Under the pieces are notes generated by a model. That model did not search any database, had not been told where the DNA came from, and was given only the letters and a program-made list of their open reading frames with translations. From contig DASXHH010000009.1 in assembly GCA_036488585.1 (NCBI GenBank), forward strand, positions 64,399-128,398: DNA of 64,000 nucleotides, written 5' to 3'. Positions 49,959 to 62,023 of this stretch are shown here, in pieces. Every line of letters begins with the position of its first letter. Within the stretch, counting starts at the first letter, position 1. Source of the DNA: Candidatus Saccharimonadia bacterium. GTDB taxonomy: Bacteria; Patescibacteriota; Saccharimonadia; UBA4664. The translations under genes and the position numbers were made by a program.

Positions 49959-50015
49959 ATGTAACGAATGACTAAAGCATACGTTACATATTGTGAAGAG
50001 TAATGGGAAAGCGCT

Positions 50016-50180
50016 ATGGAACCTAAAGACAACAAGCAGGGTTATTCGAAACGACCGCTGTGGCAGTGGTTGCTAATTTACGTGATCGTAGGAGGCGTAT
50101 TATATGGAGCCGCATACTTCATCTTCCACCAATCATCCGCAGGAGCCGGAGGAGGAGCAACTCAGCACTCATCCTACTAG
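50016..50180 (+). CDS. Possible 54-aa single-TM micro-protein
   Basis: ATG at 50016 with GGGAAAG upstream. Product MEPKDNKQGYSKRPLWQWLLIYVIVGGVLYGAAYFIFHQSS... It overlaps the next ORF in another frame. Confidence 0.3.
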   Translation: MEPKDNKQGYSKRPLWQWLLIYVIVGGVLYGAAYFIFHQSSAGAGGGATQHSSY

Positions 50181-50322
50181 CATGGGCGGGAGCTTGGCCG
50201 AAAGCTTGAAGGAACATCTTGGTGGACTGGCAAAACGCGACACATCCTCCAAGATGATCGAGGATATGCTGGCCGAACTAGCAGAACCTAAGCCGAGGCA
50301 GCCAAGAGATTGCTGTACGTAA
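50104..50322 (+). CDS. Possible 72-aa acidic protein
   Basis: Perfect AGGAGG at 50090-50095, 8 nt before the ATG at 50104. Product is acidic, Glu/Pro-rich and ends in CCT. Confidence 0.3.
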   Translation: MEPHTSSSTNHPQEPEEEQLSTHPTSMGGSLAESLKEHLGGLAKRDTSSKMIEDMLAELAEPKPRQPRDCCT

Positions 50323-50462
50323 CAGCGACGGCACATATGTTCCCGATGTGATTTCCGGAAGTGCTTAAATGAATTTTGCCCAAATCCATGAGCATCAGGT
50401 ACTATTCTGTTATGCTTACCCTTCGTCATAAATGGTCGACCCGGCACAACTCCGTAGCCCGT

Positions 50463-51416
50463 ATGACCAAATTGACCAACCGGGTGCTAATGCTCCAGCC
50501 AAAGGCAGCGGGCTTCGTCGCGCTATTTGTTGCCGCCGGAACTGTGCTCATAGTTGCATATGCCGGATCCGGTTTCTTTGTGGTTCTTTCGCCTCAGCAG
50601 GGTGTAATCCAGGGTAACGCCGGCATCGTCAGTAATGCCTCGGCCGTGGATGGGTCGGCGGTTAAATTTGGTCTCCAGACGCCCGCTCCACCCACGCCGA
50701 CCCCAAGCCCCAATCCCGGCTCTAGCCCCAGTCCTAGCCCTACAGGCGCCTCTGGCTGCAGCGCAAATGGTGTTGTCGCTCCCTGTGTCGGCGGCCCCAC
50801 AACGGGCGCCGCTGGGTGGGGTACGCCCGCCTTTGATGAAGAGTTCAGCGGCAGTGCTCTGAATACCAGCGTCTGGGACGCTCACGACGGCTGGACTAAC
50901 CAGAATAATGTCACTGATCATGCTAGCAACGTGTCGGTTACGGGCGGTGAGGCCATTCTCACTTTGGTCTCATCGGGCTCAGGAGCGGCGATTGAGACGA
51001 AATCTTACGCGCTGCCGGTCGGCGGCTTTGCTGAAGCCCGGGTCGAGTTTCCGGGGAGCGGCACTACTATATATAACTGGCCCGCCTGGTGGATCAGCGG
51101 GCCGAACTGGCCGACCGACGGAGAGAGCGATATTGCCGAGGGCCTCGGCACACTTACCGTAAACTACCATTCGCCGTCCGGCGCCCACAACCAGGGCACC
51201 GTCCCGGGTACCTGGTCAAATGCCTACCATATTTACGGCATATCCCGTGGCCCTAGCTCCTGTAAAGTCTATTGGGACGGAACCCTGGTAAAAACTTATT
51301 CCACGGACGACACTGGCAAGGGCGAAAATCTTATACTTACCGCAGGCTCGGGCAACACCGGCGCCTACGGCACCGCCTCCGAGGTCAAAGTAGACTACGT
51401 ACGTGCGTGGAATTGA
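50463..51416 (+). CDS. Secreted glycoside hydrolase family 16 (laminarinase-type beta-glucanase) with PT-rich linker
   Basis: Start set to ATG 50463 (signal anchor MTKLTNRVLMLQPKAAGFVALFVAAG). PTPTPSPNP linker, GH16 catalytic motif ESDIAE (ExDxxE) and WPAWW. Confidence 0.65.
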   Translation: MTKLTNRVLMLQPKAAGFVALFVAAGTVLIVAYAGSGFFVVLSPQQGVIQGNAGIVSNASAVDGSAVKFGLQTPAPPTPTPSPNPGSSPSPSPTGASGCSANGVVAPCVGGPTTGAAGWGTPAFDEEFSGSALNTSVWDAHDGWTNQNNVTDHASNVSVTGGEAILTLVSSGSGAAIETKSYALPVGGFAEARVEFPGSGTTIYNWPAWWISGPNWPTDGESDIAEGLGTLTVNYHSPSGAHNQGTVPGTWSNAYHIYGISRGPSSCKVYWDGTLVKTYSTDDTGKGENLILTAGSGNTGAYGTASEVKVDYVRAWN

Positions 51417-52497
51417 ACTGGCTGAAGTCATCATCGATGTCGGCGGTGGCCCAGTACATTTCCGGCTTGACTAGGAAAGGAGCGGACAGCGTTCTACGCT
51501 CCTCAATCCCATGGTCGGCTTTGGGACCCTGGATGGTGATCACCAACAAATCTGTGGCTTTTTCGGTTTCAAGCCGGTTCACCAGCCGAGTGAAGGGTTC
51601 GCCGTGACAGACAGAGCTGTGTTCGGCATGGAGCAGGTTAATGCGCGTTCCTCTTGCCGCGAGGTGAAGGAGTGCTGGTTGTATCTGAATATCGCGACTG
51701 GCGGGCGGGTAATCGTGCGCCTGAAGGGCAAGATCTCGCACCACCAAGCGCATTGACGCTAACCGCCAGAGCAGTGGGCGGTACTGATTTAGCCGATAAT
51801 TCAGCATGGCCCAGCGGGTGGGTGGTGTGGTTTTCACCATTATGTAGGGCTTGATAGCCGTAGAGGCTATCTGCTCATTGCGGTAGGCGGTACCACGGGC
51901 GACTCTATTTAAGAGCTGAGTTTTTGACGAGGAGACAGCCGCATAGCTAGGCTCAGCACACCCCACTTGGTCGATCCGTACGACGCCTCTGGTGGCGAGA
52001 GCGCTCGAGACCAGAGGCGCTAAAACGCCTCCCAGCGAATAGCCTGAAACGGTAGCTGTTCGACAAGCCGTAAACGTAGCCTGGATTAAATCAGCAACTC
52101 CTTGTGCTACTACTGCCAGTGCACCAGAGCCTTGCCGAAGGAGCCGGCTGCGTACCGATGCCGGAAATGAATACAGACCGCCGACAACTAGAACGGCGTA
52201 CTTTTGGTCTTGACCCTTGAGGATTAAATCAGCCAACAGGTTTTTGATGCCAGAATCCGGTGAGCTCGCCTTCACACCAAAACCGTCTAGCAGTACGTAG
52301 AGTTTATCCACCTTCCCTAAGTCGCAGTGGCTATAGATTCGGTAGTCAAAGATGACCCTGTTTCCTCGGTAGATTTGGGCCTGGGGTAGCGCTTGAATTA
52401 TTTCTTCGAGTGAGCGCTCGTTCAAGTAATCAACGGCCCGACTCATTACGGGATGAGGGTGATAGTCGTCCCATTTAATTGCGAGTGCGTGAGTCAT
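51385..52497 (-). CDS. Alpha/beta hydrolase-like protein (GYSLGG serine motif)
   Basis: 370 aa with GxSxG nucleophile elbow VSGYSLGGVLA. Its 3' end overlaps the GH16 gene by 32 nt (convergent). Confidence 0.4.
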   Translation of the reverse strand: MTHALAIKWDDYHPHPVMSRAVDYLNERSLEEIIQALPQAQIYRGNRVIFDYRIYSHCDLGKVDKLYVLLDGFGVKASSPDSGIKNLLADLILKGQDQKYAVLVVGGLYSFPASVRSRLLRQGSGALAVVAQGVADLIQATFTACRTATVSGYSLGGVLAPLVSSALATRGVVRIDQVGCAEPSYAAVSSSKTQLLNRVARGTAYRNEQIASTAIKPYIMVKTTPPTRWAMLNYRLNQYRPLLWRLASMRLVVRDLALQAHDYPPASRDIQIQPALLHLAARGTRINLLHAEHSSVCHGEPFTRLVNRLETEKATDLLVITIQGPKADHGIEERRTLSAPFLVKPEMYWATADIDDDFSQFNSTHVRSLL

Positions 52498-52538
52498 GTC
52501 GCAGATATTATACGTAAGTCTCGATCAACGCACACGGC

Positions 52539-53966
52539 TTAAAGCCCGACAGATCGGATGCCGGGGGCCGGCTTGACGGGCTCGCGAATGATGAAGATGG
52601 CAACTACTAGCGCAAGTGCCATGAGTATCGCACCGGTCAAAAATGCGCGCTGGTATCCAAGTACTGACGCTGCTTGTAGGCTGGCTCCATGGGCTGCGGC
52701 CGAGACGGTTGTACTTGATGCTACCTCTGCCAAAATCGCGAGTCCCAGTGCGCCGCCAATCTGCTGGGAGGTGTTAATCAAGCCCGAAGCCAGGCCGGCC
52801 TCATCGTCTGGAATTCCGGTTGTGGCCGCTATCACTATTGCGACAAACAACACCCCGAACCCAAGAGCTAGCAGCGTGAATACAGGGAGTATAGCCGTAA
52901 AGTAGGCGGAGCCGGCATTGATTAAACTCATGAGGTAGACACCTAAGGTTGTGAGCGCCGTGCCCGAAATCAGTAATGGCCTTGAACCAAAGCGCGTCAG
53001 CAACTTTGGCGCTTGGTAGGAGACTACACCAATAATTACCGGAACGGGCAAGAAATATAGGCCGGTTGTTAAAGGAGTACTACGGAGCACATTTTGGATA
53101 AACAGGGAGGCAAAATAGAACATGCCTAATGCGCCGGCGACAGCCGGGAGCATCATGAGGTTAGCCGCCGCGATGTTAGGCGTCTTGAATATGCCAAGAG
53201 GCATAAGCGGGTGTGTAACCCGAGATTCGTTGAAGACGAAGGCTACGAGCAGAATGATGGCTGAAGCAAAGGCCGTGAGTGTTGATACGGCAGTCCAGCC
53301 GGAACCACTGGCCGAAGTGAGGCCAAATACTAAGGCTATGAGCCCTAAGGTTACCAACACCGCGCCAGGAGCGTCGAGATTATGATCCGACGACTCGGCA
53401 ATATGCGGCGGCAGTGTTCGGTCGAGGGCGATGATGGCGAGAATACCGATAGGGACGTTTACGAAGAAGCACCAGCGCCAACCGAGAGTTTGAGTAAGTA
53501 GGCCGCCAAGCAACACGCCGGCGGCCGCACCGCCGGATGCAACGATGCTCCAGATCGACAAGGCCCGGTTACGCTCCGGGCCCTCTTCAAATGTGGCCAG
53601 TAGAATAGATAGAGCCGTCGGTGCCATAAAGGCTCCAGCTAGGCCCTGTAGAGCTCGCATGGCGATCATCATGGGGGCATTAGTCGACAACCCAGTCAGT
53701 AAGGAAAACAGTATAAATCCGGCGATACCGAGTAGCAGAATACGACGACGGCCATAGAGGTCGGCAGTTCGTCCACCTAGCATTAAGAAGCCGCCAAACG
53801 TAAGAATATAGCCAGTGATCACCCACTGCAGGGTAGCGCTGTTAAAGTGCAAAGCGGTTTTGATAGCTGGGAGCGCGACATTGACAATGGCACTGTCGAG
53901 AATGACTAGAAAGAAGCTAAGCGCTAGGAGCCATAGGACTGTGTTTTTGCTGGGGTGGCTTGGCAT
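52539..53966 (-). CDS. MFS transporter, DHA2 (EmrB/QacA-like, 14-TM) drug:H+ antiporter family
   Basis: 475 aa with about 14 TM helices and an N-terminal signature LALSFFLVILDSAIVNVALPAI of DHA2 exporters. Confidence 0.8.
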   Translation of the reverse strand: MPSHPSKNTVLWLLALSFFLVILDSAIVNVALPAIKTALHFNSATLQWVITGYILTFGGFLMLGGRTADLYGRRRILLLGIAGFILFSLLTGLSTNAPMMIAMRALQGLAGAFMAPTALSILLATFEEGPERNRALSIWSIVASGGAAAGVLLGGLLTQTLGWRWCFFVNVPIGILAIIALDRTLPPHIAESSDHNLDAPGAVLVTLGLIALVFGLTSASGSGWTAVSTLTAFASAIILLVAFVFNESRVTHPLMPLGIFKTPNIAAANLMMLPAVAGALGMFYFASLFIQNVLRSTPLTTGLYFLPVPVIIGVVSYQAPKLLTRFGSRPLLISGTALTTLGVYLMSLINAGSAYFTAILPVFTLLALGFGVLFVAIVIAATTGIPDDEAGLASGLINTSQQIGGALGLAILAEVASSTTVSAAAHGASLQAASVLGYQRAFLTGAILMALALVVAIFIIREPVKPAPGIRSVGL

Positions 53967-54109
53967 ACCGGTTAATAATATAGGACTTCCACCGGGTTAA
54001 AAAGCGCGTACGGCCCAATTTAAGTAACGAGCAGAGAGCTAATTTATGAATTTTCGAACCTATGCGCTATTTCGAATCTAATGTAGCGGATCGAGAGGTT
54101 TTGGGTTTG

Positions 54110-54137
54110 TTCAACGCCTATTTGGCGGTACTATAAT
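54110..54137 (+). promoter_or_regulatory. Promoter with consensus -10 TATAAT (weak -35 TTCAAC)
   Basis: TATAAT at 54132-54137 and TTCAAC at 54110-54115 (16-nt spacer). The ATG of the His-rich ORF follows at 54170 after ACGAGGT. Confidence 0.4.
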
Positions 54138-54169
54138 GACAAACCATAAAAACTTTACGAGGTTTTTCC

Positions 54170-54400
54170 ATGCCAGAGCAGAATGATCGCCATCACCACC
54201 TCCATGCGCTGCACCTACAGGTGCACGCCGCCATGCAAGAGGTCCATGAGCATCTCGAACACCATCAAGAAGAACTTGAAGATGGCCACATAGGTTTGAT
54301 GGAATCGCTGCACGTAGTGCACCACCACTTGAAGCAGGCCCACCTCGAGCTCGAAAGATACTCAGAACAGCACGAGCACGAGCACCACGAAGCACACTAG
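54170..54400 (+). CDS. Histidine/glutamate-rich small protein (putative metal-binding)
   Basis: 76 aa with about 21 His, arranged in HxxxH and HH/HHH clusters (HHHLHALHLQVH...HEHLEHHQEE...VVHHHLKQAHLELE...EQHEHEHHEAH). Predicted helical. Confidence 0.5.
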   Translation: MPEQNDRHHHLHALHLQVHAAMQEVHEHLEHHQEELEDGHIGLMESLHVVHHHLKQAHLELERYSEQHEHEHHEAH

Positions 54401-54501
54401 ACAAGAATCGGCCTTAAGTACGATCTTATTCGCGTTGCGACGAGTCAGGCCCCGGCGGGTATGCCGAGGCCTTTAGCGAAGTGCGTGACTACAGCAGTCA
54501 C

Positions 54502-55209
54502 TTAAATTAGTACCGGAGCCGACCATTCGGATTCAGTGAAGCGAAGTGGCCGAGCGAACAGGTGCACCATTCGCTGGGTGGGACACCAGAAGATGTTGAG
54601 CGCATGCGACTGGCCGTCTGTGCGATGTGGCGCACTGACGCGGATTCCCGGCAGGTTGCAGTACGGCAGCCGCCGGCCATCTTGAGCCTTGAGCAATTGA
54701 GGATGGAGTGCCAAGGCACTCATGACCTCGGTGCCGGCTAGATTGAGGCTTTCTGCCCGTGCCTGCTTACGGGCCCACTTGAGGGTACGCCTGCGAGTGG
54801 GGTCCCAGCCGTACGTGAGATCGAGGAAGACTGGGGTGATACCTGGCTTGTAGCTGCAGGCTCGGTCGTGCAGGCGTAGCCGGACGCGCGAGTGCTGGAG
54901 GTCGTCGTCGTACCAGCTGGCGGCATATTCACCGGCGTAAACCCGCCACCAGTAGTTAATGGTCTCGGTCAGCGTCCCGAACCATACGTGTAGAACAAGC
55001 AGTCGGCGGACCTGCTGGTCATGATCTACCAGCGGGTCAAGGTTGACCTCGTTAAACTGCTCCTCGGTCAGGCGGCCGCCCCAGTAGAGTGTGTTGAAGC
55101 GGCGTAGTGTGTCGAGTTGGTCGGCGGCATCGAGGCAGGCGCCACGGTAGCGCTCGAAAGAGTCGACAACCGGATTGCCCAGGGCGAGGGCGGTACGCAT
55201 TGTCGTCAT
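54502..55209 (-). CDS. Hypothetical protein
   Basis: 235 aa, Trp/Arg-rich, with no recognisable motif. It is divergent from the metallophosphoesterase gene. Confidence 0.4.
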   Translation of the reverse strand: MTTMRTALALGNPVVDSFERYRGACLDAADQLDTLRRFNTLYWGGRLTEEQFNEVNLDPLVDHDQQVRRLLVLHVWFGTLTETINYWWRVYAGEYAASWYDDDLQHSRVRLRLHDRACSYKPGITPVFLDLTYGWDPTRRRTLKWARKQARAESLNLAGTEVMSALALHPQLLKAQDGRRLPYCNLPGIRVSAPHRTDGQSHALNIFWCPTQRMVHLFARPLRFTESEWSAPVLI

Positions 55210-55297
55210 AGTCTGGTCCCTTCGGTACGTGAAAGAGCTACGGCCGATCGTTACGCCGCTTATGCCTTTAAGATAGCATGGATAGTAGATTTATCCA

Positions 55298-55327
55298 TTG
55301 CCTTGCCATTACGCCTATGTATATACT
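55298..55327 (+). promoter_or_regulatory. Candidate promoter (TTGCCT-16-TATATA) for the metallophosphoesterase gene
   Basis: A/T-rich 172-nt intergenic region with -35 at 55298-55303 and -10 at 55320-55325. GAGGAAAG Shine-Dalgarno precedes the ATG at 55382. Confidence 0.35.
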
Positions 55328-55381
55328 TAGCGTGACAACGCCCATATCTGTAGCAGTTTCACATCTCCTATATGAGGAAAG

Positions 55382-56701
55382 ATGAAAGCTATGACTGGAC
55401 GTCAGCATCAAATGCGGTGGACCACACAGGCAATTGCGCGTCTCCTTAGATGTACTACCGACAAGCAAATCAAGAGATACCTACCACACCACTCTGTCAG
55501 CTACCTGAAGCGCCTACGAAGGCGCTTCTTGTGTGAGTACCCCGAGCTGGCACCGCCCAAGGACACAGAGGCCAAGGCAAAAGGTAAGCGGCGCGAGGCC
55601 AAGGACGGCACAGAGGATGTGATCGGTGAGCTAATCGGGCAGATCGTCGAACGCGACCAGAAGAACGCGGCAACGAAGCAAGAGTTGCGTCTGGTTCGGG
55701 CGATGTACCAAGAACTGCTCGCTAGAGGTGCAGGGCAATCTAGCCTGCTCGCGGCGATATGCGACCAGATCGCATCTCGTCCGGCGGTGCCCGTGCCAGC
55801 CGCGTACGATGTCGGCCCAGTGAGTGACGATAATGAGCTAGAACTCGTGCTCATGCTTGGCTGCTGGCACATCGGCGAAATCGTCGACGCGGGCGAGACG
55901 GTCGGTATAGGGCAATACGATCTGGCGATAGCCAGGGCCCGAGCCCTAGATATCGCACAGCAGGCTATACGTTACCGCAAAGAGCGCCTCGGGCAATACC
56001 GGGTGACGAAACTGCATGTGGTGTCGCTAGGCGACATGATGCGCGGCCTGATTAACGGCGTAGATGCCGGAACAGTCCGCATGGTGACACAGCTGACGGA
56101 ACTGGTCGACATCATGACCGAAGTCATGATGATGCTGGCCATGTCGTTCGAACGCATAGAGTTTACGGCCGTCCCCGGCAATCACGGGCTTTCGACCATG
56201 CAAGAAGTGTTCAAGGGCAAAGCCAAGGACAATTACGACACCCTAGCCGCCGAGATGCTCAGGCGCATCTTGGCTCAACAGCCCAACATCCGCTGGCATA
56301 TCCCGGTCAGTCCCTTCGCCGAAGTGCGGGTGGGGCAGGCCACCTTTTTGGCCATGCATGGGGACTCCCTCAAGGCCCTCAAAGGACTCCCGCAGTATGG
56401 AATGCGGGAAGGTTATCTGCGACTTCGCGCCATGGTAGACCAGACGCAGCGCGACGCACGGACGGCGCGCAATCCGGCGGACCCATACCACCTGGTGACG
56501 GCGCACTTCCACGACCCCATGTTTGTCCATGTGGCGGCGGACAATGCCCTCATATCAGTGGGTAGCCTGGTGGGAGGCAACGAACTGGGAATCAACGCGG
56601 TCGGCGACGCCAAACCGCCATCGCAAACACTGATCAGCGTAAGTCCTCAGGGACACATCACTGACTACTGGCCACTCCGGCCTAAGGAGGTGGGCGTATA
56701 G
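55382..56701 (+). CDS. Divergent SbcD/Mre11-like calcineurin-type metallophosphoesterase with ~150-aa basic N-terminal extension
   Basis: 439 aa with ordered MPE motifs: LGCWHIG (motif I with Cys where Asp is expected), SLGDMMRG (II), VPGNHG (III), LAMHGD (IV) and TAHFHDP (V/VI). Strong Shine-Dalgarno. Confidence 0.55.
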   Translation: MKAMTGRQHQMRWTTQAIARLLRCTTDKQIKRYLPHHSVSYLKRLRRRFLCEYPELAPPKDTEAKAKGKRREAKDGTEDVIGELIGQIVERDQKNAATKQELRLVRAMYQELLARGAGQSSLLAAICDQIASRPAVPVPAAYDVGPVSDDNELELVLMLGCWHIGEIVDAGETVGIGQYDLAIARARALDIAQQAIRYRKERLGQYRVTKLHVVSLGDMMRGLINGVDAGTVRMVTQLTELVDIMTEVMMMLAMSFERIEFTAVPGNHGLSTMQEVFKGKAKDNYDTLAAEMLRRILAQQPNIRWHIPVSPFAEVRVGQATFLAMHGDSLKALKGLPQYGMREGYLRLRAMVDQTQRDARTARNPADPYHLVTAHFHDPMFVHVAADNALISVGSLVGGNELGINAVGDAKPPSQTLISVSPQGHITDYWPLRPKEVGV

Positions 56702-56782
56702 GCGCCTATACGGCTCTAGATGAAATTCGTCTAGGGCCGTTCGCCTTTTTGGGTGGAATGTTGGGGTATAAATGCGGGGATG

Positions 56783-56810
56783 CCCCGGGAACGCGATTGC
56801 ATTCCCGGGG
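56783..56810. terminator. Hairpin between convergent genes
   Basis: ccccgggaacgc-gatt-gcattcccgggg 12-bp stem with one mismatch. The smaller overlapping hairpin cgggga-tg-ccccg lies at 56775-56787. No U-run. Confidence 0.35.
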
Positions 56811-56817
56811 CAGGGGT

Positions 56818-57921
56818 CTATCCGGCCGGAGGCGGTGGCATCCAGTCGGTTGGCACCAGGCCATCCGCGTCGCGGCGAAGCCAGACTGTTCGGAACTGGT
56901 CGCGGTCGTGACGGAAAGCGGCGAGGCGCAGCGTGCGGCACAACGCCTGGTATGGTTCGTCGGCTTCAACGAAATCGAGCGCGCCGAGGGAAGCGTCGAA
57001 GTCGTAGGCCGCATTGGGCCGATGGCGGGTGGATGAGAGCGATTTCAGAACTATGGGGGCATGTCGTTCGACCGATATGCCGGCCAATATCGCTTGTACC
57101 ACCGGTGCAGGCAGCTCAGCAGACTCCGATCGAGCCGTGGCAATGCAGCGGAGCAAACGGTGAGCCGCGCGGCATTCGGGAAACAAACGCACGTTTGTAG
57201 CCAGCATTTCCGCGACCGCAAAGTGGGCTGGCTGCACGGAGCCAATGGCGCCCAAGAAGGTGGCCAGACGGGCAACCGACGAATAATGCTCGGTAACCCG
57301 CCGCATAACCCAGGCTCCGCGGTCATGGCGGTGACCCACTAGTGTAGCGGTGACCGCAGCCAGGGCTGGTGGGTAGAGGTCACTGAGACCGGCAGCGAGT
57401 GCAATCGCCTCATTGGTGTTGGTGGCAGCGGCAAGTCCGCCAGCTAGCTCACCAGCGGTGATGATGATGGCCCTACCAAAGGCATCCACCAATCCCCCGT
57501 CCCAAGTGGCGGCAGCGGTGGCACGCGATGTGCCGGCCAGTTGCTCCGCTAGACGGAGAAGGCTATCCGCATAACCGGCTACCAGACTCCAGTCGTCGAC
57601 GGGCCGGGCTTTTTCGATGGCCGCGAGGGGGTCGAGAGCATGCAGTGGCGTTGCTCGCAGGGTGAATTCGGAAGCCGGAACAAAGTCGTATGCACCATCG
57701 CGAGTACGCCAAGCCAGTAGTCCCGCCAGCCAGCCATTGCCGGTAGCGGCGGTCACGTGTCCGCACCAGAGGTGTGGGGTGCCGGCGTAGGTCTTGGTGC
57801 CGCGGTAGGCGTCCGGCTGAACCAGCACTGATAGCTGGCTGCGGGTGTCGACGCCGATTTGAAAGAACTCCGCCATCTGGGCGGCGGTTAGAGGCACAGC
57901 CAGGGGCTGAGTAACAAACAC
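56818..57921 (-). CDS. Hypothetical Ala-rich protein
   Basis: 367 aa with no recognisable domain. Confidence 0.4.
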   Translation of the reverse strand: MFVTQPLAVPLTAAQMAEFFQIGVDTRSQLSVLVQPDAYRGTKTYAGTPHLWCGHVTAATGNGWLAGLLAWRTRDGAYDFVPASEFTLRATPLHALDPLAAIEKARPVDDWSLVAGYADSLLRLAEQLAGTSRATAAATWDGGLVDAFGRAIIITAGELAGGLAAATNTNEAIALAAGLSDLYPPALAAVTATLVGHRHDRGAWVMRRVTEHYSSVARLATFLGAIGSVQPAHFAVAEMLATNVRLFPECRAAHRLLRCIATARSESAELPAPVVQAILAGISVERHAPIVLKSLSSTRHRPNAAYDFDASLGALDFVEADEPYQALCRTLRLAAFRHDRDQFRTVWLRRDADGLVPTDWMPPPPAG

Positions 57922-58088
57922 ATTGCCTCCCAGGGCATTGGCTGGTTTTTGCCTATTTAAAGCTTAGCAAAAGATTTATTTGAGTAAACATATAGAATGA
58001 TGCGATTGTTTCGGGAACCTGGTCGGCCTAGATTAAGTGGTTTTGGTCAGCGGGGACAGTGACCATGATCACATCATTGTGCGCTTGA

Positions 58089-58130
58089 TGTACGAAGAGC
58101 CGCTTGGGTATCCAAGCGGCTCTTCGTACA
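58089..58130 (-). terminator. Perfect 19-bp stem / 4-nt loop hairpin downstream of the GH26-ricin gene
   Basis: tgtacgaagagccgcttgg-gtat-ccaagcggctcttcgtaca at 58089-58130, 33 nt after the gene stop on the minus strand, with no U-tract. Confidence 0.45.
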
Positions 58131-58163: not shown

Positions 58164-59837
58164 CTAGTAGGTCGGGTACCACTTCTGAGCGGTTGAGCCG
58201 TTGCAGGTATAGATCCAGATGGGGTTGCCGTTTAGGGTGCTGTTCCAGCGGTCGTCCAGGCAGAGGCCGGATTGCGGGTTCACGATCGTGTGGTTCGTCG
58301 TATTTACTACCCACTGCTGGGCACCGCTGCCATTACATTGGTACAGCTGGACCAATGTACCGGGCTTCGTGCCGCCCCAGTGCACATCCAGGCAGTAGCC
58401 ATTGGCGTTGACGATGGGGCCGCGGCTGGCACTGACGCGCCACTTCTGGGCATTGGTCTGGTTACAGGTATATAGATCGATCTTATTTTCGTTAACCTTG
58501 GCCGAGCGCCAATTGTCGAGGCATTTACCGGCTGGGCCGACGATTGATCCCAAGACTGAACCTACTACGGGAGTCGGAGTGGGGACCGGAGTCGGGACTG
58601 GGGTAGGAATGGGCGTGGGCTTCGGAGTCGGAGTGGGTGTGGGCAGGTGTGTGGGGGTTGGCGTAGGTGTGGCGACAGGCGTTGGCGTGGGCGTGGGCGT
58701 TTTGATTAACACCGGAGTAGCGCTCGTGGCGAAGGCCTTTTTATAGGCGGCGGTGGCGTTAGGGATGGCTGAGCCCAAGGCCTGGATACCATCGCCGCCG
58801 GTGTCGAAGTAGGCCTCGAAGGCGAAGTCATTGGAGTTAAACAGTTGGGCCATGTTGGTGACATAGGCGGTGTCGTCGGGACCGCCCTGGTTGAGTCCCC
58901 ACTCGGGTAAACTCATAGGCTTTGAGTTGGCCTTGGCGAAGGCCATGATGTTGGAAAGACTGGGGAAGCCGGCTCCAGGGTAACTGGATGAGTCGGTGTA
59001 GTAGGCCTGCCAGCCTTCCGCGGCGACGGTCGCCGAGTCATGGCAGTCGGAGTCGTAGGCGTCAGCCCCGATGATATCGACGTAGGCGTTGCCGGGGTAC
59101 CACTGGTTGATCGGGAAGTCTTGCGTACAGATGTTGGGGTTCCAGACGAAGATCAGATGAGAGCCGGTGACAGCGCGCATGGCTGTGACCTCATTGTCAT
59201 AGCACTTGGCCCAATCCGCGAGTTCAGTCGCGGACGAGCCGGTATAGTCGGTTTCCCAGCCGCCATTGGCCTCGATGCCGAGACGGATGACGATACCGCC
59301 GGCTCCATAGGAGACGAGATTCTTGGCGAGTTGCGTGGCGTATGAGTTGTAGGCGCCAGAAGCACAGGACTGTTCCCAGGCAAGGGGATTTGAGGTGCTG
59401 CCGGCCGACTGCGGGATGAGGTCGACGCCCAAGATCATCTGGTGGCCGGTGGAGAGCCAATGCTCCCAGCTGACCGAGTCGGCGGGGTTGGGGTCGTTGG
59501 TAAACTGCCAAGGCGCTACCCAGTCTGTCCAGGTTGGCGAAGGGTTAGCAAAGGTTTCGAGACAGTCATAGGTCACGCCGGTCGCGGCCTGGGCGGCGCT
59601 GATGTTGGCCTGGCTGACTTCTCCATACGGACCACCAGGCAACGTGATACAGTGCGTCTTGGTGTTGTCGCCAACGACGGCAGACGCGTGCGTGCCGACT
59701 AACAGCCGGAGTCCGACCGCGGAGAAGACGAGCACAAAGGCGACGGCCATGGTCACCGACCACTGGCGGACATTGAGAATAAACGGACGTTTTCGATTTG
59801 ATTTTTTTCTAGCGGGGGACGACGTCTTTTTTGGCAC
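58164..59837 (-). CDS. Secreted glycoside hydrolase (GH26-like, clan GH-A; beta-mannanase-type) with PT linker and C-terminal ricin-B (beta-trefoil) lectin domain
   Basis: 557 aa with GTG start and AAGGG Shine-Dalgarno. Basic N-region plus signal anchor, GH-A-like IRLGIEANGGWETDY (compare GH26 RFxHEMNGxW), a (PT)n linker at residues 379-424 and three QxW repeats (NAQKWRV, GAQQWVV, TAQKWYP) with CLD...YxC spacing. Confidence 0.65.
   Translation of the reverse strand: MPKKTSSPARKKSNRKRPFILNVRQWSVTMAVAFVLVFSAVGLRLLVGTHASAVVGDNTKTHCITLPGGPYGEVSQANISAAQAATGVTYDCLETFANPSPTWTDWVAPWQFTNDPNPADSVSWEHWLSTGHQMILGVDLIPQSAGSTSNPLAWEQSCASGAYNSYATQLAKNLVSYGAGGIVIRLGIEANGGWETDYTGSSATELADWAKCYDNEVTAMRAVTGSHLIFVWNPNICTQDFPINQWYPGNAYVDIIGADAYDSDCHDSATVAAEGWQAYYTDSSSYPGAGFPSLSNIMAFAKANSKPMSLPEWGLNQGGPDDTAYVTNMAQLFNSNDFAFEAYFDTGGDGIQALGSAIPNATAAYKKAFATSATPVLIKTPTPTPTPVATPTPTPTHLPTPTPTPKPTPIPTPVPTPVPTPTPVVGSVLGSIVGPAGKCLDNWRSAKVNENKIDLYTCNQTNAQKWRVSASRGPIVNANGYCLDVHWGGTKPGTLVQLYQCNGSGAQQWVVNTTNHTIVNPQSGLCLDDRWNSTLNGNPIWIYTCNGSTAQKWYPTY
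58566..58703 (-). repeat. Low-complexity (ACN-CCN)n tract encoding the Pro-Thr linker
   Basis: The plus strand reads ggagtcggagtgggg...ggcgttggcgtgggcgtgggc. It is internal to the GH gene. Confidence 0.4.
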
Positions 59838-59920: not shown

Positions 59921-62023
59921 CTAGAAAAGCGGGGGCTGTTCACCCAACCCTTGCAGCTGTGACGAATCATTGCTCTGAGCATCGAAGAACTTGGGTGGGT
60001 TGAAGTATATTTGAGGATTTAAAGTGATCTCCTCGGCAACCTGGGACCCCAACCCACTACCCAGCCTCTTGTATCCAATGTCGTAGGCCATCAGGAAACC
60101 GTTTACCTGTAAGGTGCTCCGGCACGTACCACCCCAGGTGGTGTCACAGGTGTCAATGGTGCTGTCGGCAAATAAGTAGGCATCGACTCTCGTGACGGCG
60201 GCTTCAATCGCTATTTCGCTGGTTGGCCCGGCAATGATCCCAAGCGATGGCGCGGCTTTGGGCTGAGCGGAGGCACTGGTTATCACAATCGAGTTTGTAG
60301 CGCAGCCATTACCTCCAACGTATAGTGTCCCCGATTCTTGTACGATCGTGATGAGGTTACTTACCGTGCCGCAGATATTGGCGTTGCCGGATATATAGTA
60401 GACGCCCTTCCAGCTACTGATGTTATAGGTCCCACTGCCAAGTTTCGTCGCGTCAGGGGCGCCCGCGGCGAGGTAATTTTGGGCAGCCGTATACAGATCT
60501 GGACGACAGACTTGCGAATAAGCGCCGGCATTGCCCATGTTGAGTGAATTATTGCCGCCGGATCCGAAATTCGAGATAGAGCCATCGGTGGAAAGCACGT
60601 ACTGGGAATATGAACCGCCCCTAGCATTGCCAATGACCTGCCCACTGCTCATGGTCCCGCCGCATAATCCTCCACCAGCATGGACGTCACTATTGAGACC
60701 TACGACGCTTGGGTAGGAAATGGCAGCTACCCGGAATGTCACGGTCGTGTGAGCTACTCCCCCGCTTTGATCGGCCGGATAGTAATAAATGTCGAAGGTG
60801 ATTAGACTATCAGGCGCGGCCGTGGCTGGTACGGTGAAGGTCAGCGAAGTGGTAGTTAACCTGCCAACTGGAATACTTTGTGTGTTCCAGTACCAGTTAG
60901 GCCCGCTGACACCCGGCACCTCCGAGCCGGTAGAAGTGAAGCCACGGGTTATTTCGTAAGACGTCAGGGGTGATTGTTGCGGGTCGCTGCAGGCGCTCGC
61001 GCATGGTTTGGCTACGTTGCTGCCTGGTAACTGGACCTGTAAGGCGCCCGAGGTGGACGGATTGGGCCCAAGGTTTTGCACTGAGATGTCGATGGCGCCG
61101 GTTTGTCCGGGGAGTACGGTACTTACGGTTCCGCTGGCGGTAAGCTTCATATTGTAGCCCAAAATTTTGGGCAGTGAATCGAGCGTCCCTTCCACGTTGC
61201 TGCAATAGCGGTTAATCATGTAATTGCCGGTTGAGGATGAGAAGACAATCATTTGGGCGAGGTCACTAAAGGGGGTGCGGTAGGCAACCACATCATGGCC
61301 ATAATCTGCACCGTAACTGTCAACTATACCGGCTGGCAGAGCCATGGTTACATCCCAATTGACGTCACCGGCGGCGCTGGCGGCCAACACAAGGGTAGCC
61401 CAGGTATCGAACTCGGCTTTGGCATCATTTACACCGGTTATAAGGTTATCGCCAAAGACATATTGCGGACCGGTTGGTGGTGGCCCGGCCGAACCGGGGT
61501 AGTCAGTGTACGGACTACCGATCATAGTGAGCACCAAGAAGGCCGCTCCCGAGACTTTCCGGCGCCAGGCGGGACAGCCCGTATCCGGATCAAGGCCGCT
61601 ATTTTGGCTAATATCGGCGGGTGGGTTTGGCTGAGACAATACACAGCCCGGGCCTCCGGGGCTTGGGGCGTATAAATCGCTTTTGATGAAAGCGATGAAG
61701 TGCTGGGCATTGACGCTATTCGATAAGCTGCTCCCGGTACCGTAGGTTGGATCGCTGGGTCCCGGAAAAGCCCAGGTGCTGGCGGGGACGCCCGCTGGGT
61801 CACTGTAGGTAAAGATGGACGGAAGCAGCGTGTCATGGCCAACCACTCCGTTTAGCGGCGGAGCAGTGCCGTCTAGCCCAGTGAAGTAACCGATATTGAG
61901 ACACCGGCCGACTCTAATGGCGGAGCAGTCGGGAGCAGCCTGGGCGATTGGGAATAAACCCAATCCGCTCACTGTTATCAGCAAAATTATGGCGCCAATA
62001 GTCCACCTCGTTGGTCGTATCAA
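59921..62023 (-). CDS. Large secreted Gly/Ser/Thr-rich protein with multiple Cys pairs (unknown family)
   Basis: 700 aa with signal peptide MIRPTRWTIGAIILLITVSGLGLFPIAQAAP. No catalytic motif recognised. Start overlaps the TPR gene stop (co-transcribed). Confidence 0.45.
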   Translation of the reverse strand: MIRPTRWTIGAIILLITVSGLGLFPIAQAAPDCSAIRVGRCLNIGYFTGLDGTAPPLNGVVGHDTLLPSIFTYSDPAGVPASTWAFPGPSDPTYGTGSSLSNSVNAQHFIAFIKSDLYAPSPGGPGCVLSQPNPPADISQNSGLDPDTGCPAWRRKVSGAAFLVLTMIGSPYTDYPGSAGPPPTGPQYVFGDNLITGVNDAKAEFDTWATLVLAASAAGDVNWDVTMALPAGIVDSYGADYGHDVVAYRTPFSDLAQMIVFSSSTGNYMINRYCSNVEGTLDSLPKILGYNMKLTASGTVSTVLPGQTGAIDISVQNLGPNPSTSGALQVQLPGSNVAKPCASACSDPQQSPLTSYEITRGFTSTGSEVPGVSGPNWYWNTQSIPVGRLTTTSLTFTVPATAAPDSLITFDIYYYPADQSGGVAHTTVTFRVAAISYPSVVGLNSDVHAGGGLCGGTMSSGQVIGNARGGSYSQYVLSTDGSISNFGSGGNNSLNMGNAGAYSQVCRPDLYTAAQNYLAAGAPDATKLGSGTYNISSWKGVYYISGNANICGTVSNLITIVQESGTLYVGGNGCATNSIVITSASAQPKAAPSLGIIAGPTSEIAIEAAVTRVDAYLFADSTIDTCDTTWGGTCRSTLQVNGFLMAYDIGYKRLGSGLGSQVAEEITLNPQIYFNPPKFFDAQSNDSSQLQGLGEQPPLF

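Follow-up and report, generated by a model that had tools for sequence, protein, structure and literature searches.

A diverged phrog_284-type metallophosphoesterase gene between two orphan genes in a Saccharimonadia genome

The window analysed here is a stretch of 64,000 nucleotides from the genome of a Candidatus Saccharimonadia bacterium (GenBank assembly GCA_036488585.1, contig DASXHH010000009.1, positions 64,399 to 128,398 of the forward strand). Its positions 54502 to 57921 hold three open reading frames (ORFs) of 235, 439 and 367 amino acids, correctly delimited in an initial annotation made from the sequence, which saw in them an island around a metallophosphoesterase (MPE) that could not be assigned to any named system. 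The outcome of the present analysis is mostly a correction: the supposedly unassignable nuclease of a defence-like island is a diverged member of phrog_284, a very common and experimentally uncharacterised family of phage enzymes, and this copy was probably left stranded, or was domesticated, after arriving with a phage or mobile element that has not been sampled.

The three genes and their intergenic sequences

The genes are the following, with coordinates, here and below, given as positions in the window.

54502-55209, minus strand: orf235, orphan gene of 235 amino acids (open reading frame, codon usage)
55382-56701, plus strand: MPE gene of 439 amino acids, encoding a helix-turn-helix (HTH) domain, a long helix and a metallophosphoesterase domain (phrog_284 match, AlphaFold2 (AF2) model)
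56818-57921, minus strand: orf367, alanine-rich orphan gene of 367 amino acids (open reading frame, codon usage)

All three ORFs can be accepted as genes because they combine Shine-Dalgarno motifs, a coding-type pattern of GC content by codon position (0.65/0.46/0.72 in the case of orf235) and codon-usage scores that are best in their own frame. The Shine-Dalgarno motifs are GAGGA ahead of the MPE ATG at 55382, GGGAGG 5 nt upstream of the orf367 GTG and, as read from the sequence, the Shine-Dalgarno-like AAGGGA upstream of the orf235 ATG. When codon usage is modelled on 23 long genes from the window, which themselves score 0.16-0.45, the own-frame scores are 0.196 for orf235, 0.176 for the MPE gene and 0.209 for orf367, i.e., at the low end for this genome; the other frames of orf235 reach at most 0.059, and all but one of the eight antisense shadow ORFs stay under 0.07.

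Existing gene calls differ in their start sites. The NCBI call for the MPE gene has 390 amino acids instead of 439, its later start leaving out positions 55382-55528, which would deprive the protein of its conserved HTH domain; a start at the ATG at 55382 agrees better with both the family alignment and the GAGGA motif. The JGI calls are also shorter, with 352 versus 367 amino acids for orf367 (57877-57921 left out) and 232 versus 235 for orf235 (55201-55209). The same DNA is present in one Logan assembly and two JGI contigs that are 99.99-100% identical to the window, with no polymorphism among them by which selection on the MPE gene could be tested. In JGI metagenome 3300036792 the assembly breaks inside this gene (56374-56455), where two contigs end with an 82-bp overlap; they are otherwise identical to the window, and no sequence variation accounting for the break was found in them.

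The two flanking genes had been described as lacking recognisable domains, which holds for Pfam, NCBIfam and PADLOC alike. For each of them, a word-indexed search of 5.8 billion proteins returned only the query itself, and neither has a significant match in PHROGs, the PDB, phage genomes (tblastn) or plasmids; the weak matches that did appear, to phrog_31234 (E 0.016) and, for orf235 in the PDB, to a CHORD domain (E 0.021), were judged to be due to chance. orf235 and orf367 are thus best described as lineage-specific orphan genes. With no homologue anywhere searched, they cannot be partners whose association with the MPE is conserved in the genomes sampled so far. The initial annotation had itself listed flanking ORFs that are not conserved neighbours in related genomes among the findings that would count against it; on this point the neighbours fail.

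The spacers that separate the three genes contain several features.

55210-55381, no strand assigned: divergent spacer between orf235 and the MPE gene, 172 bp, 45% GC
55278-55298, no strand assigned: 7-N7-7 palindrome ATGGATA/TATCCAT in the divergent spacer
55298-55327, no strand assigned: promoter-like TTGCCT-18-TATACT in the divergent spacer
56710-56740, plus strand: terminator-like hairpin, then TCGCCTTTTT, directly 3' of the MPE stop codon (a T-run follows)
56781-56812, no strand assigned: GC-rich hairpin (arms of 14 nt) within the convergent spacer, adjoining the orf367 stop codon

An A/T-rich promoter region proper to the MPE gene, as first described, is not apparent: the divergent spacer has a GC content of 45% and one promoter-like match, which is no more than in shuffled sequence. 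The palindrome could conceivably serve as an operator. The 116-bp spacer between the MPE gene and orf367 contains two strong hairpins; with the convergent spacer taken as 127 nt, it folds at -66.5 kcal/mol (z = -5.97). The GC-rich hairpin is the one previously reported as nested hairpins at 56775-56810. Because the genes are arranged as <- -> <- with separate spacers and terminators, they form three transcription units and no operon. Both orphans are real genes that appear to be unrelated to the MPE gene.

Family, fold and active site of the metallophosphoesterase

The 439-residue protein matches the PHROGs family phrog_284, annotated as "exonuclease" and also as "DNA polymerase II small subunit-like", with an E value of 2.2e-36; residues 57-425 of the protein cover positions 37-385 of the 398 in the profile. 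When 1.84 billion representative proteins were searched exhaustively with HMMER, 2,192 relatives were recovered at E < 1e-3 (777 at E < 1e-10), mostly of 400-440 amino acids and matched from about residue 85 to 435. With this full-length alignment and this number of relatives, the protein does not defy assignment; the gene has diverged from the rest of a large bacteriophage family but is intact. The best relative (E 5e-41) shares 34-35% identity at most and, since the word-indexed search of 5.8 billion proteins again returned only the query, this copy is an isolated lineage within its family. The protein has no match in Pfam at E <= 0.1, including Metallophos (PF00149) and Metallophos_2, nor in NCBIfam or PADLOC; among 50 aligned relatives, 18 match Metallophos and 17 Metallophos_2, and their N-termini match varied HTH models (Myb, GerE, sigma70_r4, HTH_23, HTH_38). 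PDB searches with the protein, the full family profile or the catalytic-domain profile gave nothing significant, the profile matches below significance being coiled-coil noise, SbcD (E 0.83) and Vps29 (E 0.05).

Using tblastn, weak relatives were found in 265 phage genomes, including phages of Propionibacterium/Cutibacterium and Streptomyces, SPbeta-like Bacillus phages and Myxococcus phage Mx1, and the phage proteins at these matches (P. acnes, Streptomyces, SPbeta-like, podovirus) all score as phrog_284. In P. acnes and Streptomyces phages, the gene resides in early/replication regions, in the company of genes for primase, helicase and sigma factors. On the contigs of the relative P0006 and in SPbeta-like phages, it lies a few small ORFs upstream of terminase-like and portal genes (L089:8001-9266, L090:816-2081, L085:5653-6852); P0006 itself is encoded on a 43.8-kb phage contig upstream of both, and the SPbeta-like gene between YonK and the terminase block. 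Another relative, P0005, is found on a 39-kb contig with HNH, YqaJ and RecT genes. The position of the family in phage genomes is not uniform. A search for related loci in viral contigs with the single proteins P0004 and P0006 gave no confirmed locus, and nothing about the MPE protein was found in the literature on YonJ and SPbeta.

Some members of the family are much longer. P0005 (L092:8001-10475), with 824 amino acids, contains an intein, with Hint and Intein_splicing matches, and aligns in two stretches; six other relatives, P0030, P0054, P0075, P0117, P0136 and P0151, are similarly long at 720-840 amino acids, and most align in two or three stretches. In the alignment, the large insertion falls directly after the GNHG(R) catalytic motif. 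Recurrent inteins would suggest that the enzyme is important to its phages.

The architecture of the protein was deduced from an AF2 model based on a 50-sequence alignment, which reached a predicted local distance difference test (pLDDT) score of 85.7 and a predicted template modelling (pTM) score of 0.75, against a pLDDT of only 40 for a single-sequence model. The domains and motifs, all on the plus strand, are as follows.

55412-55537: N-terminal three-helix HTH-like domain, residues about 11-52 (AF2 model, family alignment)
55610-55768: single long helix, residues 77-129, i.e., 53 residues (AF2 model)
55829-56686: MPE catalytic core, residues 150-435
55862-55870: motif I, C161/H163
56030-56035: motif II, G217/D218
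56054-56056: N225 (His in the family)
56177-56185: motif III, G266/N267/H268
56189-56191: L270 (Arg in the family)
56357-56359: motif IV, H326
56504-56512: motif V, H375/H377, in the context (A)H375-F-H377

The helices of the HTH-like domain (15-23, 27-33 and 39-52) are modelled at a pLDDT of about 90, and W13 aligns with a conserved Trp of the family. The long-helix region is conserved in relatives and draws coiled-coil matches in the PDB profile search; this helix is probably a coiled-coil or oligomerisation element. The core, mostly above a pLDDT of 90, adopts the MPE fold, and the protein ends right after it. The N-terminal extension of about 150 residues had been presented as a peculiarity with respect to SbcD/Mre11; it does precede the catalytic core, unlike in these proteins, but is conserved throughout the family as HTH plus long helix, and the full phrog_284 architecture is present here.

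The best eight Foldseek matches in the PDB are all DP1, the small subunit of archaeal PolD and its 3'-5' proofreading exonuclease; DP1 and the polymerase B-subunits have the fold closest to that of the model. In BFVD, the protein is matched over its full length by phage proteins of about 400-440 amino acids named "DNA polymerase II small subunit" or "metallophosphatase". The earlier label "SbcD/Mre11-like" is therefore right at the level of the superfamily, but the nearest branch is DP1. The phosphodiesterase fold matches that of DP1 (PDB 5ihe, 8ppt) with only 14-16% identity and no match at the sequence level; in addition, DP1 has an OB-fold (oligonucleotide/oligosaccharide-binding) domain and works with DP2, whereas the present protein has the HTH and the 53-residue helix instead, and the genes annotated between 45 and 64 kb in the window include neither DP2 nor a polymerase. 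An SbcCD/Mre11-Rad50 system was considered and rejected: there is no adjacent SbcC/Rad50 gene, the structural score is below that of DP1, no NCBIfam or Pfam model of SbcD/Mre11 matches, and the N-terminal module differs.

The complete ordered set of MPE motifs noticed at the outset is present: C161-x-H163, G217-D218, G266-N267-H268, H326 and H375-x-H377. In an alignment of the protein with 150 relatives (151 sequences, 40 columns conserved at >= 80%), the family signature reads [D/C]-x-H-x-G-E, L-G-D-x-V-S-G-x-I-H, G-N-H-G-R, H-G-D and G-H-F-H. G217, D218, G266, N267, H326 and G327 are invariant in all 150 relatives, H163, H268, H375 and H377 nearly so, and all ten are kept. The MPE residues map one-to-one on D360, H362, D404, N450, the catalytic H451, H497, H560 and H562 of DP1 (PMC10721889), the counterpart of Asp360 being Cys161. 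The replacement of several canonical metal ligands had been proposed, of which only this one stands: Cys161, next to a retained H163, occupies the alpha-site column of motif I, where 133/150 relatives hold Asp and 15 hold Cys (16 counting this protein). Neither of the other two supposed deviations is one. LGDMMRG, said to lack a second Asp, fits the family's GDxxxG (consensus LGDxVSG), with the bridging Asp218 invariant and the second Asp not a ligand in DP1, and GNHG(R) is the family consensus, with no metal ligand replaced. Two real deviations had been overlooked, H225N and R270L: this protein alone has Asn where 136/150 relatives have His, and Leu where 148/150 have Arg, each codon being one nucleotide step from that of the family. 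Overall, 8 of the 40 conserved columns deviate, compared with a median of 3, which places the protein 9th of 151.

Cysteine at this position has a precedent in Dbr1, described as an exception among MPEs in that an invariant, essential Cys replaces the motif I Asp; its alpha pocket held no metal in the crystal structures concerned (PMC4176325). Because Dbr1 has an invariant and essential Cys at the same position, Cys161 need not inactivate the enzyme. Dbr1 is also the one characterised MPE family with such a Cys, but its lariat-recognition loop and C-terminal domain have no counterpart in the AF2 model. The calcineurin-type fold of the protein, its place in a nuclease-like branch of the MPEs and the exchange of Asp for Cys in its alpha metal pocket were well described from the start.

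Origin and possible activity

Known members of phrog_284, such as gp26 of P. acnes phage PHL092M00, gp41 of Streptomyces phage Spernnie and the SPbeta-like MPE, have the same architecture and a similar length, and the present protein shares the family's invariant GD, GNH, HGD and GHxH motifs. It differs from them in its identity of <= 35% to any relative, in its chromosomal location without phage neighbours, in its minority Cys in motif I and in the unique H225N and R270L. As to its identity and status, we conclude with good confidence that it is a diverged phrog_284 protein whose gene, brought in by a phage or mobile element not yet sampled, was stranded or domesticated in this chromosome. 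That the protein is, more specifically, a phage-derived, HTH-tethered, probably dimeric two-metal phosphodiesterase acting on DNA ends stands at about an even chance. In such an enzyme, the HTH would hold the protein on DNA and the long helix would pair two subunits, while the two-metal centre would hydrolyse phosphodiester bonds of DNA, the most plausible activity being that of a 3'-5' exonuclease. Cys161, His163, Asp218 and His377 would make up the alpha pocket and Asp218, Asn267, His326 and His375 the beta pocket, and His268 would be the catalytic residue. With a thiolate in its alpha pocket, the enzyme should, like Dbr1, prefer Fe or Zn to Mn.

Functional precedents for such an action exist. 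The DP1 exonuclease is one of them (PMC10721889), and the best experimental analogues are two phage-encoded DP1/Mre11-like MPEs, Bxb1 gp47, a limited 3' exonuclease that the phage requires to replicate its DNA (PMC11795197), and mycobacteriophage gp48, which degrades host DNA (PMC12287305). Both of these phage proteins belong to another family, phrog_221; they show how the present protein may work, not what it is. Membership of the gp47 type, an MPE and recombination directionality factor with a cognate large serine integrase, was rejected: gp47 scores as phrog_221, has 255 amino acids and lacks the HTH and helix module, its hhalign comparison with the catalytic-domain profile yields a probability of 1%, and there is no serine integrase near the MPE gene in the annotated neighbourhood.

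Several points weigh against an active enzyme of phage origin. The loss of two near-invariant residues, together with the eight deviant columns, means that the protein may be inactive or re-specialised. We found no enzymatic activity or biochemical study for any phrog_284 member, so that the exonuclease assignment rests on fold analogy and database names. The phage origin of this copy is something that we infer without att repeats, integrase or flanking phage genes: there is no phage-like gene within about 9 kb on either side, no integrase or mobility gene in the annotated neighbourhood, no tRNA in the window and no att-like repeat flanking the three ORFs. No neighbour has a convincing PHROG match; one weak match is to a family of unknown function (E 0.0025), and the linker and lectin parts of a glycoside hydrolase family 26 (GH26) protein give several, including a weak one to tail tape-measure proteins (E 0.006) that is taken as spurious. 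Moreover, an insertion is not demonstrable, as the nearest Saccharimonadia relatives (GTDB genomes) share only the gene of a major facilitator superfamily (MFS) transporter, at 61-63% identity and without synteny, which leaves the island boundaries undefined. Lastly, the orphan status of the flanking genes comes from word-indexed and HMM-library searches, which miss very remote homologues.

A decaying relic of a lost prophage is the first alternative to consider, whether the protein is a pseudo-enzyme or has kept no role but that of binding DNA or serving as a scaffold, in the manner of eukaryotic polymerase B-subunits, whose MPE domains are inactivated. H225N and R270L, each unique among the 151 sequences and a single nucleotide step away from the family, the high rank in deviant columns, the lack of any remaining phage context and a codon-usage score at the low end for the window all fit decay. 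Yet all seven metal-ligand positions and the catalytic His268 hold competent residues, the frame is intact over 439 codons and comes with a good Shine-Dalgarno motif and a terminator, and the fifteen relatives with the same Cys are otherwise canonical; the three independent assemblies are identical, so that they offer no polymorphism by which relaxed selection could be tested. On balance, we consider a relic possible but unlikely.

The reverse idea is that the motif I Cys marks a repeated adaptive switch of metal (to Fe/Zn) or of substrate, the latter being, for example, 2'-5' branched nucleic acids or signalling nucleotides. The Saccharimonadia copy, which also has H225N, R270L and two private neighbours, would then have been domesticated and re-specialised rather than be debris. 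This idea draws on the distribution of the residue: Cys is present in about one tenth of the family, replacing Asp by Cys takes two nucleotide substitutions, and a neighbour-joining tree spreads Cys over about six groups, including a ten-member clade. This spread is suggestive, but a neighbour-joining tree is weak at such divergence, and we regard the idea as improbable.

MPE nucleases do occur in defence systems, and the three genes were initially read as a possible new module for defence or DNA processing, in which the MPE would be the nuclease effector and the orphans would act with it as sensors or regulators. Their similar GC content and codon-usage scores, their location in a poorly conserved stretch of the genome and a palindrome in the divergent spacer that the HTH might bind would be consistent with this. 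Against it, none of the three proteins matches a component of known anti-phage systems (PADLOC-DB 2.0, E <= 0.1), the supposed partners have no homologue in the 5.8 billion proteins, phages, plasmids or the PDB and hence no conserved association, strong hairpins separate the MPE gene from orf367 within an arrangement of three transcription units, and the relatives of the MPE are encoded by phages, not in defence islands. Such a module is very improbable; the orphans may nonetheless have arrived together with the MPE gene. A switch of substrate to 2'-5' branched RNA or DNA (e.g., retron multicopy single-stranded DNA) or to nucleotide second messengers can be given hardly any credence, for what speaks for it, namely the Dbr1 precedent, the roughly six Cys groups and a two-step codon change of which the alignment column shows no intermediate, is set against the missing lariat-recognition loop and C-terminal domain, the 89% of the family that has Asp in an otherwise identical active site, and the unreliability of a neighbour-joining tree of such diverged sequences.

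A phage-type gene in the chromosome of a member of the Saccharimonadia, which belong to the candidate phyla radiation (CPR), gives a modest hint about the phages of that lineage, of which little is known. Characterising phrog_284, a DP1-like family with 2,192 representatives that is a repeated intein host, would annotate thousands of phage genes. The recurrence of the motif I Cys beyond Dbr1 also provides a natural Asp/Cys comparison for the metal selectivity of MPEs.

The surrounding region

Genes around the locus encode von Willebrand factor A (VWA) proteins, DoxX, a cupredoxin, a sigma-70 family sigma factor resembling those of the extracytoplasmic function (ECF) type, a glycoside hydrolase of family 16 (GH16), the MFS transporter, a His-rich 76-residue ORF, the GH26-ricin protein, a CDP-alcohol phosphatidyltransferase, a ferritin, a hydrolase, a D-Ala-D-Ala carboxypeptidase and an ATP-binding cassette (ABC) transporter. 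The efflux pump and His-rich peptide first pointed out next door are thus the MFS transporter and the 76-residue ORF. The latter (54170-54400, plus strand), located between the transporter gene and orf235, contains 21 His and 14 Glu and is preceded by a GAGG Shine-Dalgarno motif; it belongs to no Pfam or PHROG family and may be a small protein that binds metal.

Secreted-looking glycoside hydrolases, GH16 and GH26, the latter with a ricin-type lectin and long Pro/Thr linkers, are encoded in this region together with a 700-residue protein without family (50376-51416, 58164-59837, 59921-62023). Just downstream of the GH26 stop codon, a perfect 19-nt inverted repeat with a 4-nt loop (58089-58130) has no T-run on either strand. 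The genes at 50000-58000, including a 370-residue lipase-like ORF and GH16, have codon-usage scores below those of most long genes elsewhere in the window, and the closest Saccharimonadia genomes show no synteny for any of them; it is the entire region, not the three ORFs alone, that looks like variable or acquired DNA. Outside Saccharimonadia, the best matches of the MFS transporter (52539-53966, minus strand) come mostly from Actinomycetota, e.g., Gaiellales and Nocardioides, at 42-48%, which would fit gene exchange between Saccharibacteria and actinobacterial hosts. Many of the phages that encode relatives of the MPE also infect Actinobacteria.

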